Positions 45,598 to 55,179 of a DNA stretch of 64,000 nt are shown in pieces. The stretch covers positions 16,097 through 80,096 of the forward strand of contig CAZJWR010000008.1 of the NCBI GenBank assembly GCA_964549765.1. Reading direction: 5' to 3'. The number at the start of each line of letters is the position of its first letter. Within the stretch, counting starts at the first letter, position 1. A program made the position numbers and the translations under genes. Below the pieces are notes generated by a model. It was not told the origin of the DNA. It ran no database searches and worked only from the letters and a program-made list of their open reading frames with translations. The stretch is from an uncultured Ignavibacteriales bacterium. GTDB taxonomy: Bacteria; Zixibacteria; MSB-5A5; GN15; JAAZOE01.

Positions 45598-45748
45598 AAC
45601 CGAGGTGCCGACATCGGGCCGATCATTCCGTGCGGTGAATGGTGATAATACGCTCCAATATTGTTTGATTTTCTCGTATCATAGTATGATATTACTGCAG
45701 GAGAGGCAAATTCTGCTATCGCTTTCGCATTAAAAAGGAGATGTATTC

Positions 45749-46483
45749 ATGCCCGACAAAAAAGACGGATGTGTCTCGCCCGCCGCCGGGCCGATTATCC
45801 CCGACGCGGACAAGACGTCCGACGAACAACCTCAATCCCCGACAAAAGAGGTGATCAAAATGACGGCAAAAGTAGGCAAACAGGCCCCCGATTTCGAGGC
45901 CAACGGCTTCTATAAGGACGGTTTCAACAATTTCAAGTTGTCCGATTACAAGGACAAATGGGTGTTGCTCTGTTTCTACCCCGGCGATTTCACCTACGTT
46001 TGACCGACCGAACTGGCGGCGGTCGCCGCCATGAAAACCGAACTGGACAAGCTCGGTGTCCAGGTGCTGTCCATGTCCACCGACAGCCGATTCACGCATA
46101 AGATCTGGCAGGAGGAGGAGCTGTCCAAGATGGTTCCGGGCGGGTTCCCGTATCCCATGCTGTCCGACCAGGGCGGGCGGATCGGATCGGTGTACGGTGT
46201 ATATTCCGAGGAGGAGGGCGTCGATATTCGCGGACGGTTCATTATCGATCCCGACGGCGTTATCCAGGCTGCGGAAATCATGACGCCGCCGGTGGGGCGC
46301 AATGTGACCGAGTTGATTCGGCAGGTCAAGGCGTTTCAGCATGTCCGCAAAACCGGCGAGGTGACGCCGGCCGGATGGCAGCCCGGCAAACCCACCCTGA
46401 CACCCGGCCCTGCTCTGGCGGGCAAGGTGTGGAAGGAATGGAAAGTCGAGAACGCCTTTGCGAAGGAGAAAGTCACGCCGTAA
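45749..46483 (+). CDS. prxU: Selenocysteine-containing peroxiredoxin (AhpC/Prx1-like, 244 aa; UGA at 46001-46003 read as Sec)
   Basis: ORFs 45749-46003 and 46031-46483 are in the same frame. The junction reads FYPGDFTYV-TGA-PTE, so TGA occupies the peroxidatic Cys position of FTFVCPTE. A SECIS-like hairpin follows. Confidence 0.92.
46014..46031 (+). promoter_or_regulatory. Bacterial SECIS-like hairpin
   Basis: TGGCGGC-GGTC-GCCGCCA: a perfect 7-bp stem with a G-first loop, separated from the UGA by 10 nt. Confidence 0.75.
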
Positions 46484-46492
46484 ACACGATTG

Positions 46493-46521
46493 GGACCAGG
46501 AGTCCGAAGGACTCCTGGTCC
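46493..46521. repeat. Perfect hairpin after prxU (terminator-like or REP-like)
   Basis: GGACCAGGAGTCC-GAA-GGACTCCTGGTCC. It shares the CAGGAG...CTCCTG core with the REPs at 10380 and 58093. Confidence 0.6.
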
Positions 46522-52906: not shown

Positions 52907-55108
52907 TCAGCTCTCGACCATGATCGGCTTTTCCGCCCGGTCGAGGACATTACCGATACTCGCGGCGGTCACCCCGTTCTTCTCAAGCAATTCGAGGAGC
53001 CTGTCCGCTTTACCTTTGGGAACGGAAATAAGCAAACCGCCGGAAGTCTGGGCGTCGTTCAATATCAGACGCTTGATATCAGATAGGCTTTGTTCATACT
53101 GGACATGGGGGGCAGTAAAATCGAAATTGTCTCTGGTGCCGCCGGGAATTACCCCGGAAACCGCCAATTCCTCGACCCCCGGCAATAATGGAACCTGCCC
53201 GGCGCGTATCACCGCCGAGGTTTTGGAGCCTTCCGCCATTTCCAGCAAATGCCCCAGAAGTCCGAATCCGGTGATATCGGTGCAGGAATTGACGCCGATT
53301 TCCTGCATGGATTCGGCGGCGGATTTGTTGAGCGCGGCCATGGTTTCGATAAGCCGAAGCTTTTGATTCTCGTTGAGCAGCCCCCGCTTGAGGGCCGTGG
53401 CGAGAATGCCCGTGCCGATCGGTTTGGTGAGGATCAGGCCATCGCCGGGTTTAGCGGCGCGATTGGTGATTACCCGGTCGGGATGGATTAGCCCGGTGAC
53501 AGCCAGACCGAATTTCGGTTCGGTGTCGTCCACGGTGTGGCCGCCGATGATGGCGATCCCGGCTTCTTTTGCTTTGGATTGGGCCCCGGCCAGTATTTTT
53601 TGGAGGACGCCGATTGGCAGGCGATTGCTGGGGAAGCCGACGATGTTGAGCGCAAAGAGTGGCTTGCCGCCCATGGCATAGATATCGCTTAACGAATTAG
53701 CGGCGGCTATGGCGCCGAATTGGAACGGGTCATCGACAATCGGCGTGAAAAAATCGACCGTCTGCACGATGGCGATATCGGCGCTGACGCGATAAACGGC
53801 GGCGTCGTCGGAAGTATCCGTGCCGACGATGATATCGACATCCTCGGGCACAGGCATGCTGCGCAAGACCTCTTCCAATAGCTGCGGGCGCAATTTGCAG
53901 GCGCACCCCAGGCCGTGGGTATACTGCGTCAGCTTGACGTCTTCAAATGATCCACTCGATACAACGACGCCCCCTGACGGCTTGAGCTTTTCAACGACCT
54001 TCTCGATCTCCTCCAGAGCACGGTCGATTTCGTCCTGGTTCGTGTGGCGGCCGACCGAAAAACGGATCGTCCCCATGGCATATTCGAGGGGAACATCCAT
54101 CGCTTCCAGCACAGCCGACACATCCACCCGGTCGCTGTGACAGGCCGCGCCCGCCGACGCTGCCACCTGATCCAGTTCGGCCAGGATGGTGTTGGCTTCG
54201 AGGCCGCGAAACGACACGCTGCAGGTATTGGGCAGGCGTTTTTCCGGATGACCGTTGATGCGAACATCGGGAAATCGTTCCTTAAGACCGTTTTCGAGGC
54301 GGTCGCGCAATCTTTTCATGTGGTCATGATACCCGCCCGGATTCTGGGACACCATGGCGCAGGCTTCACCGAGGCCGGCTATTTCCAGCACATTTTCCGT
54401 CCCGGCCCGACGATTCATTTCGTGGTCGGCGCCGTGAACGAATTTTTCCAGGCGGATGCCGCTCCGGATATACAGCGCCCCAATCCCCTTCGGCGCATAT
54501 AATTTGTGTCCCGCGATCGACAGCAGATCGACGCCGAGATCATCGGCCCGGACCGGGATTTTGCCGACTGACTGGGCGCAGTCGCTGTGCATGATGATGT
54601 CATGGGCATGAGCGATTTTCGCGATTTCGGCGATGGGTTCGACCGTGCCGACCTCATTATTGGCGTGCATGATCGTAATCAAAATCGTCTGCGGCGCGAT
54701 CGCGTTTTCCACCTGTGCCGGGTCGACGAGCCCGTATTCATCGACAGGAAGAAAGGTGATGCGGTAGCCCTGCTCTTCGAGGTAATGACAGACTTCGGTG
54801 ACGGCCGGGTGTTCGATAGCCGAAGTGATAATATGATTACCCTTGCTCCGATAGGCATGCGCCACGCCCTTGATGGCGTAATTGTTTGATTCGGTGCCGC
54901 CGCTGGTGAAAATGATTTCCTCGATGCCGCAGCCCAGCATATCGGCCACCTGCCGGCGGGCGTTTTCCACGGCCTTTTTGGTGGTGACGCCAAAGGCGTG
55001 GCTGCTGGAGGGATTGCCGAAATTCTTCTGCAGATACGGCAGCATCGCGTCGGCCACCCGGGGATCGATCGGCGTCGTGGCGTTATAGTCGAGGTATATC
55101 GGAGCCAT
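52907..55108 (-). CDS. selD: Fusion of a NifS/IscS-like cysteine desulfurase (or Sec lyase) and selenophosphate synthetase SelD
   Basis: N-half: YLDYNATTP, FGNPSS, AGHKLY (PLP Lys), RAGTEN, SAGAACHS. C-half: LTQYTHGLGCACK, DDAAVY, TVDFFTP, DITGFGLLGH, DAQTSGGLL. It is one uninterrupted ORF. Confidence 0.94.
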   Translation of the reverse strand: MAPIYLDYNATTPIDPRVADAMLPYLQKNFGNPSSSHAFGVTTKKAVENARRQVADMLGCGIEEIIFTSGGTESNNYAIKGVAHAYRSKGNHIITSAIEHPAVTEVCHYLEEQGYRITFLPVDEYGLVDPAQVENAIAPQTILITIMHANNEVGTVEPIAEIAKIAHAHDIIMHSDCAQSVGKIPVRADDLGVDLLSIAGHKLYAPKGIGALYIRSGIRLEKFVHGADHEMNRRAGTENVLEIAGLGEACAMVSQNPGGYHDHMKRLRDRLENGLKERFPDVRINGHPEKRLPNTCSVSFRGLEANTILAELDQVAASAGAACHSDRVDVSAVLEAMDVPLEYAMGTIRFSVGRHTNQDEIDRALEEIEKVVEKLKPSGGVVVSSGSFEDVKLTQYTHGLGCACKLRPQLLEEVLRSMPVPEDVDIIVGTDTSDDAAVYRVSADIAIVQTVDFFTPIVDDPFQFGAIAAANSLSDIYAMGGKPLFALNIVGFPSNRLPIGVLQKILAGAQSKAKEAGIAIIGGHTVDDTEPKFGLAVTGLIHPDRVITNRAAKPGDGLILTKPIGTGILATALKRGLLNENQKLRLIETMAALNKSAAESMQEIGVNSCTDITGFGLLGHLLEMAEGSKTSAVIRAGQVPLLPGVEELAVSGVIPGGTRDNFDFTAPHVQYEQSLSDIKRLILNDAQTSGGLLISVPKGKADRLLELLEKNGVTAASIGNVLDRAEKPIMVES

Positions 55109-55179
55109 TCTTGTCCTTTCTTTCACCGCGGAATATCTTGTTGAAGATTCATCCTCGCATCAAGTCAAAAGTCCGGTTA

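Follow-up and report, generated by a model that had tools for sequence, protein, structure and literature searches.

Within a 64,000-nucleotide stretch of DNA from an uncultured Ignavibacteriales bacterium (GTDB lineage Bacteria; Zixibacteria; MSB-5A5; GN15; JAAZOE01; GenBank assembly GCA_964549765.1, contig CAZJWR010000008.1, positions 16,097 to 80,096 of the forward strand), hereafter referred to as the window, positions 45749-46483 are best explained, as a whole, as a single functional gene, prxU, for a selenocysteine (Sec)-containing peroxiredoxin (Prx) of the PrxU family; we put the probability of this reading at about 0.92. The analysis in silico established the integrity of the gene, its family, the conservation of an in-frame TGA and of the hairpin behind it, the presence of the Sec machinery and of thioredoxin (Trx) and Trx reductase (TrxR) genes in the genome, and selection on an N-terminal arm of the protein. 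We infer the peroxidase activity and the electron donor of the gene product. The features on which the reading rests are as follows:

45749-46483, + strand: prxU coding sequence (CDS), 244 codons plus the TAA stop codon (46481-46483), with Sec as codon 85
45736-45740, + strand: Shine-Dalgarno (SD) sequence AGGAG, 8 nt before the ATG at 45749
46001-46003, + strand: UGA read as selenocysteine U85, the predicted peroxidatic residue, on the evidence of the frame and of TGA conservation in homologous loci
46014-46031, + strand: upper hairpin of a putative bacterial selenocysteine insertion sequence (bSECIS), with the stem 46014-46020 paired to 46025-46031 and the loop GGUC at 46021-46024, as seen in the minimum free energy structure

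Between the ATG and the TAA codon the frame contains a single TGA, and when this codon is read as Sec (U), translation yields 244 residues with the active-site string PGDFTYV-U-PTE (P78-G-D-F-T82-Y-V-U85). Translation table 11 cuts the same frame into open reading frames (ORFs) of 84 amino acids (45749-46003) and 150 amino acids (46031-46483), which match positions 1-39 and 53-123, respectively, of the AhpC-TSA profile and are hence two halves of one domain. The initial annotation, made from the letters of the DNA alone, had joined two same-frame ORFs across one TGA at the catalytic site and had expected annotation pipelines to split a 244-residue gene; the reading frame and the Prx motif bear out the former, and the latter has happened, since the 150-residue fragment exists as a separate public protein record (P0042). 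Taken by themselves, the split and the public record would also suit a genuine stop codon, caused by a nonsense mutation in a pseudogene or by an assembly error, with the two ORFs being either dead fragments or separate small proteins.

The read-through protein matches the curated NCBIfam equivalog model NF040737 ("peroxi_PrxU") with 380.6 bits at a cut-off of 270. Residues 6-234 align with positions 2-232 of the 233 positions of this model, a nearly full-length match from which it follows that the curated PrxU model already includes the N-terminal extension. When the genome was searched with the same profile, the prxU locus scored 374.5 bits, with one TGA within the match. In Pfam, the protein matches AhpC-TSA (PF00578) over residues 42-174 (3.2e-36), 1-cysPrx_C (PF10417) over residues 195-221, and also Redoxin. 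Public homologues bear names such as "Selenocysteine-containing peroxiredoxin PrxU" and "thioredoxin-dependent peroxiredoxin", and the description of the gene as a hidden selenoprotein in the initial annotation was therefore an overstatement, the family being curated and public records already carrying PrxU names. Natural Sec-containing peroxiredoxins have been known since 2001; the founding PrxU, reportedly the one that Sohling et al. described in 2001 from Eubacterium acidaminophilum, is reported to have about 203 amino acids and would so be without the arm. A 2026 review lists the Sec-containing peroxiredoxin, with the motif PxxxTxxU (TxxU), among the experimentally known prokaryotic selenoprotein families (PMC13188914), and 12 Sec-containing peroxiredoxin genes are counted in an earlier survey (PMC1794560).

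Judged by its sequence, the gene product is a member of this already known family with a Prx1/AhpC-type fold: it shares with PrxU the full-length match above the cut-off, including the arm, and a Sec residue in the PxxxTxxU motif, and nothing excludes its membership. Within the family it falls into a large sub-clade whose C-terminal resolving position is occupied by Thr, Met or Ala. Its nearest solved structures are typical 2-Cys peroxiredoxins, the best being human Prx2 (E 2e-47, residues 39-220), while residues 1-38 are covered by none of these nearest structures. In an AlphaFold2 (AF2) model the Prx domain is predicted with high confidence (mean predicted local distance difference test [pLDDT] score 84.1), and the active-site residues P78, T82 and R161 are invariant in the homologue alignment. 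The fold match, the active-site Pro, Thr and Arg, and the C-terminal GEVxPAGW region are shared with typical 2-Cys enzymes of the Prx1/AhpC class (human Prx2, PDB 7kj1 and 1qmv; Salmonella AhpC). Unlike these enzymes, however, the window protein has Sec in place of the peroxidatic Cys, Thr206 in place of the resolving Cys, and an additional 38-residue N-terminal arm with an invariant Cys; it also has an invariant Cys ten residues before Sec, at a site that is Phe in both Prx2 and the genome's own AhpC. By its sequence it is thus a protein of the Prx1/AhpC fold but not a typical 2-Cys Prx, because the resolving Cys of the VCP motif is replaced by Thr206.

The codon at the catalytic position is a TGA in nearly all of the homologous loci compared. 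Of 41 genomes from the family and order to which the window belongs, 20 contain a PrxU match above the cut-off, and 19 of these 20 loci carry TGA at the catalytic codon; the remaining one (L038) encodes Cys, has a different downstream sequence and is missing the hairpin. A search of the GTDB genome collection confirmed 523 relatives; of the best 80, all but one carry TGA at this codon (79 of 80), the exception being L044 with TGC. These 80 loci come from Chloroflexota, Acidobacteriota, Nitrospirota, Thermodesulfobacteriota, Zixibacteria, Bacillota, Actinomycetota and other phyla. Another 80 loci, sampled independently from metagenomes with a query lacking the N-terminal extension, have TGA in 80 of 80 cases. 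The alternation between Cys and TGA for which the initial annotation had proposed to look was hence observed in both sets of genomes, and we infer from the sequence comparisons that the UGA at 46001-46003 inserts Sec at residue 85. The TGC locus L044 and a TGA locus (L046) are nearly identical Acidobacteriota sequences with the hairpin kept in both, a pair that looks like a very recent switch between Sec and Cys.

The genome, whose assembly is 97% complete, encodes the machinery that Sec insertion needs. A tRNA-Sec gene scores 73.6 bits (cut-off 47) and is classified by ARAGORN as SeC(tca); profile searches found selA with 489 bits and, directly after it, selB with 322 bits; and two selD genes are present. 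The selA, selB and selC genes named in the initial annotation were therefore all recovered, with selD in addition, and all four score above curated cut-offs. Genes for Trx (132 bits) and TrxR (369.8 bits) are likewise present in the genome.

One of the selD copies lies within the window itself, about 6.5 kb from prxU (52907-55126, - strand), and encodes a 739-residue fusion of a class-V aminotransferase (NifS or selenocysteine-lyase-like) with SelD. Its SelD part comprises the AIRS and AIRS_C domains (TIGR00476, 399.8 bits), and it contains no in-frame TGA. The second selD (G000:C2:114503-115426, L017; 375.8 bits) contains one in-frame TGA and is probably itself a selenoprotein gene.

The hairpin TGGCGGC-GGTC-GCCGCCA begins 10 nt after the UGA and has a perfect 7-bp stem. 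It had been pointed out when the stretch was first read, and it proved to be the minimum free energy structure and to be conserved along with the TGA. We aligned the corresponding region of 96 sequences of the Sec form, 94 of them distinct; excluded were two Cys forms, a duplicate genome and a locus truncated by a contig end. In this alignment, 86% of the cells in stem columns 13-20 and 25-32 are paired and four of the eight pairs show compensatory changes. The covariation score of 0.153, as compared with 0.082 for shuffled alignments, was reached by 0 of 500 shuffles, and slid registers of the stem all score below the true register. Some of the covariation comes from synonymous third positions in Leu and Gly/Ala codons, and some from amino-acid changes that occur in pairs (Ser to Ala with Gly to Ala). 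The loop (alignment columns 21-24) reads GGTC (33) or AGTT (62) across the distinct Sec forms; the GU at loop positions 2-3 is invariant, and positions 1 and 4 covary perfectly without mixed forms. The bases flanking the invariant GU may pair once SelB is bound. On this comparative evidence the hairpin is a conserved, covarying SECIS-like element. For the SECIS of Escherichia coli fdhF, a review (PMC8659212) gives a 17-nt upper stem-loop located 11 nt from the UGA with the key bases U17, G23 and U24. With it, the window element shares the position of the hairpin directly 3' of the UGA inside the CDS and the GU in the apical loop.

Several observations nevertheless speak against a functional Sec-encoding gene at this site. 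Taken as a single sequence, the window hairpin has a fold energy that stands out only a little (z -1.82, with 9 of 200 shuffles reaching it), and because this energy alone is unconvincing, the case for the hairpin rests on the comparative evidence. The stem begins at a distance of 10 nt from the UGA and has the loop bases G22 and U23 (loop G21 G22 U23 C24, counting from the U of UGA), one nucleotide closer than in fdhF, where the distance is 11 nt and the bases are G23 and U24 (PMC8659212). The bulged U of the fdhF type is missing from the perfect stem of the window; this feature belongs to the definition of the E. coli fdhF element and may not hold generally, and the 16:29 stem position is unpaired, mostly as U-U, in 43 of the 94 distinct homologues. 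An Rfam search returned chance matches only (E 3-8), with no model reporting the hairpin. A promoter scan of the 150-nt upstream spacer (45598-45748) found no promoter-like site. In favour of the TGA, contigs from three sequencing runs (assembled sequences, not reads) span 46001-46003 without any difference, and hence without the TGC or TGT variant that the initial annotation had named as a refutation, but two of these runs may be the source of the assembly and the third is from another sample, perhaps of the same sampling campaign.

Set against these points, the two readings that dispense with Sec fare far worse. A genuine stop codon is hard to reconcile with the recurrence of TGA at this codon in independent loci of many phyla (19 of 20, 79 of 80 and 80 of 80), with the strong conservation of both halves of the protein, with the covarying hairpin after the TGA, with the agreement between the contigs of the three runs, and with complete Sec machinery; we consider it very improbable. 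More remote still is a reading of the TGA as Trp or Gly (translation codes 4 or 25), or unspecific read-through, to which some translations of database homologues that print W at this position might be taken to point; the W is probably owed to the table chosen by the gene caller. TGA serves as an ordinary stop otherwise, since it ends 532 of the 1338 open stretches of at least 400 codons in the genome, and the genes next to prxU are whole under table 11, among them that for the 844-residue PriA with all its domains; moreover, the column alternates with Cys and not with Trp or Gly, and the genome has a dedicated tRNA-Sec, selA and selB.

The protein encoded by prxU departs from typical 2-Cys peroxiredoxins in further features, two of which carry Cys residues:

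45749-45799, + strand: arm motif MPDKKDGCVSPAAGPII, with the Cys8 codon TGT at 45770-45772; Cys in 94 of 94 distinct segments
45800-45859, + strand: variable linker of low confidence (residues 18-37), with AF2 pLDDT <50 at residues 20-36 and no conservation in the alignment
45971-45973, + strand: Cys75 codon TGT, ten residues before Sec; Cys in all arm-bearing genome loci
46364-46366, + strand: Thr206 (ACG) at the canonical position of the C-terminal resolving Cys (GEVTPAGW), from the alignment to human Prx2

The arm follows the consensus M-A-E-x-K-D-G-C-V-x-P-A-K-G-P-I, after which comes the variable linker of about 20 residues; the window reads KDGCVSP, and this motif occurs once in the whole genome. 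Conservation of the N-terminal Cys, which the initial annotation had suggested examining, is complete: Cys8 is present in all 96 extension-bearing genome loci, where the 94 distinct segments encode it by TGT (48) and TGC (46), and the Val, Pro, Gly and Ile residues of the arm are kept through all of their synonymous codons. Such synonymous variation indicates selection at the protein level. The description of this residue as a lone Cys holds for the extension, of which it is the only Cys, but not for the protein, in which Cys75 is invariant as well. In 83 of the 94 distinct sequences the outer ATG stands seven codons before the Cys, and the arm is always in frame with the Prx domain; a GGAG, GAGG or AGGA word lies 4-16 nt upstream of the equivalent outer start in 89 of the 96 homologous loci. 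By these sequence criteria the outer start of the arm-bearing frame is real. Among the 80 metagenome loci, the arm Cys is found in frame upstream in 73, five are cut by a contig end and two are without it, which amounts to 73 of 75 judgeable loci. Database proteins of about 200 amino acids had appeared to be arm-less Sec forms without a C-terminal Cys, a view that was rejected since the DNA of 73 of the 80 loci carries the arm Cys; as judged from this DNA, the short forms would mostly be start miscalls at an internal ATG.

Two variations on the arm were seen among the homologues. Planctomycete PrxU proteins (P0021, P0027) have a signal peptide directly before the same Cys motif (DDLCVAPARGPI), which points to exported versions whose arm would likewise stand at the mature N-terminus. 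Some order-mates of the window have the variant arm EPVGCAKPTG and keep a C-terminal EACPAGW.

Cys75 is as invariant as Cys8: all 96 arm-bearing genome loci and all 80 metagenome loci have it. The same position is Ile and Tyr in two arm-less forms and Phe in the ordinary AhpC-like gene of the genome. This strict co-occurrence with the arm suggests that Cys8 and Cys75 act jointly and do not stand in for each other. Human Prx2 has its resolving Cys where the window protein has T206, in agreement with the earlier remark that the usual VCP motif is VTP here. At this C-terminal position the 80 genome loci have Thr in 61 cases, Met in 11, Ala in two and Cys in two, with four unparsed (Thr by eye); in the 80 metagenome loci the residues are Thr (49), Met (23), Cys (3), Val (2), Ala (1) and Ile (1), with one unparsed. 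The two arm-less forms, one with Sec and one with Cys at the catalytic site, keep EVCPAGW.

We built a maximum-likelihood tree of the Prx domain from which the arm columns were excluded and which was rooted on the ordinary AhpC of the genome, using a quick, short search. The arm-bearing forms constitute one group (SH-like approximate likelihood ratio test [SH-aLRT] 92), with the arm-less forms falling outside of it. Inside the group, a clade of 14 rows keeps the C-terminal Cys and a clade of 82 rows has lost it in all but two rows. The topology would be consistent with the arm having been gained first and the C-terminal Cys having been lost later, the arm having made the old resolving Cys dispensable; because the root is a single, very long branch and the search was short, this order is a lead and not a result. 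The tree departs from taxonomy: the window copy groups with those of two genomes of the same family, next to copies from Chloroflexota and Acidobacteriota, and other genomes of the window's family carry the type of PrxU that keeps the C-terminal Cys. Horizontal transfer or paralogue replacement is suggested by this pattern.

The junction between the linker and the Prx domain holds a further conserved element:

45848-45862, + strand: internal SD-like GAGGTGA (45848-45854) and ATG 45860 (Met38), where the Prx domain starts

In 91 of 96 loci the codon that opens the Prx domain is preceded, at a distance of 4-16 nt, by an SD-like word (GGAG, GAGG or AGGA), the sharpest such peak in the CDS (95% as compared with a mean of 13.5%), and the equivalent of codon 38 can act as a start in 76 of 96 loci. 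The residues encoded at this site vary (KEV, KGG, KEE, EGG) while the nucleotides stay, which hints at selection at the RNA level on 45848-45854 and at an internal start that would give rise to an arm-less isoform. An internal SD and start would explain why gene callers frequently place starts there. The SD-like word could equally be a relic of an ancestral ribosome-binding site, and ATG 45860 is at this stage a putative second start, proposed from sequence.

We envisage the following course of events. Translation would begin at ATG 45749, and the mRNA hairpin at 46014-46031, with GU in its apical loop, would recruit SelB and Sec-tRNA(Sec) to the UGA at 46001-46003, with the result that Sec would be inserted as residue 85 of the PxxxTxxU active site. 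The selenolate of Sec85 would reduce a hydroperoxide and turn into a selenenic acid, which would then be captured as a selenenylsulfide by one of the two invariant Cys residues; capture by a Cys other than the canonical one is most likely, because the C-terminal resolving Cys is Thr here. The first choice would be Cys8 on the flexible arm, with Cys75 as a possible partner or relay, and thioredoxin would subsequently reduce the selenenylsulfide.

A precedent for such a role of Cys8 is provided by mammalian MsrB1, whose selenenic acid can be reduced by thioredoxin only through a selenenylsulfide between Sec95 and Cys4, the latter lying in the flexible N-terminus (PMC1278935). MsrB1 shares with the prxU product a catalytic Sec and a Cys near the N-terminus on a flexible segment, and in both the usual resolving position is occupied by Ser or Thr. 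As a methionine sulfoxide reductase, MsrB1 is unrelated in fold and in reaction, so that any analogy would extend to the PrxU mechanism only.

The part of the scheme in which Cys8 captures the selenenic acid is one that we hold tentatively, at somewhat under even odds. It is plausible in that it fits both the strict conservation of Cys8 and the loss of the C-terminal Cys, with Cys75 as a competing candidate. A number of findings tell against it: the equal invariance of Cys75, the low AF2 confidence of the arm (pLDDT 58-64), the two judgeable metagenome loci without the arm Cys, the 16 of 96 arm-bearing forms that also keep the C-terminal Cys, and the occurrence of the arm in Cys forms (L044 and several full-length database proteins). 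From the last two it follows that the arm is not simply a substitute for the C-terminal Cys and that it is not specific to Sec. These two findings lend support to the view that the arm has a non-catalytic function (docking of a reductase or other partner, oligomer control, metal or selenium binding, or regulation) and that the enzyme is a 1-Cys-type, here 1-Sec, Prx reduced directly by an external thiol, as do the preservation of the planctomycete motif after a signal peptide, that is, in a different cellular context, and the conserved internal SD and start, which could provide an isoform without the arm. The Cys, however, is the only invariant residue of the arm, and the selenenic acid of MsrB1 is not reducible by thioredoxin without a resolving Cys (PMC1278935); we think a non-catalytic arm unlikely, though not negligibly so.

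Somewhat less credible to us is the possibility that Cys75, rather than Cys8, is the resolving residue, forming an intramolecular selenenylsulfide in the core as in an atypical 2-Cys Prx, with Cys8 as a shuttle to the reductase or without any redox role. Its unbroken conservation in the arm-bearing and metagenome loci and its absence from the arm-less forms and from the ordinary AhpC-like gene speak for it, and so does its place ten residues from Sec in the strand leading into the active-site loop; yet the strict co-occurrence of Cys75 with the arm suggests cooperation over replacement. Position 75 is also a buried strand residue in solved Prx1-type structures, which counts against a resolving role.

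Returning to the preferred scheme with Cys8, we would extend it only speculatively to the clade as a whole. In this doubtful version, a cross-phylum clade of Sec-containing peroxiredoxins would have replaced the C-terminal resolving Cys by the arm Cys, would use a Sec85-Cys75 and/or Cys8-thioredoxin relay, and would in addition produce an isoform from the internal start. If true, the relay would occupy a position that has not been described for any class of peroxiredoxins. Our literature search, from which subscription journals were mostly absent, found no description of the arm, of Cys75, of the loss of the C-terminal Cys or of the internal start, and, within the same limits, no study on how the selenenic acid of a Sec-containing peroxiredoxin is recycled.

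As a gene call, prxU matters for annotation only: gene finders that use table 11 split the gene, and the antioxidant capacity and the selenium use of the organism are consequently under-counted. The family pattern, with an invariant arm Cys, an invariant Cys ten residues before Sec and a mostly lost classical resolving Cys in about 170 loci from many phyla, raises the question of whether the MsrB1 rule that Sec needs a resolving Cys of its own extends to peroxiredoxins, a question of relevance to the design of Sec-based peroxidases.

In the window, prxU stands alone, with the gene for PriA ending 150 nt upstream and that for a PMT_2 glycosyltransferase beginning 240 nt downstream. One additional feature follows the gene:

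46493-46521, + strand: perfect 13-bp hairpin with the loop GAA, 10 nt 3' of the stop codon and without a T run

This inverted repeat was not called by a terminator scan because it has no T run; it is probably the 3' end of the transcript or a stabiliser. An antisense ORF of 208 amino acids (45716-46342) has no Pfam match and was taken as spurious.

Other TGA-bearing loci with similarity to redox proteins were noticed along the way. At G000:C6:6446-8362 (L041, L042, L124), two neighbouring Prx-like ORFs, one with a single in-frame TGA and the other with two, precede a TrxR-like gene (176.8 bits), an arrangement that may represent a small selenoprotein redox operon; similar TGA-bearing pairs of Prx-like ORFs recur in the relatives. 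A thioredoxin-like match of 37.3 bits at G000:C7:64289-64585 contains one in-frame TGA and may encode a Sec-containing protein of the thioredoxin fold.

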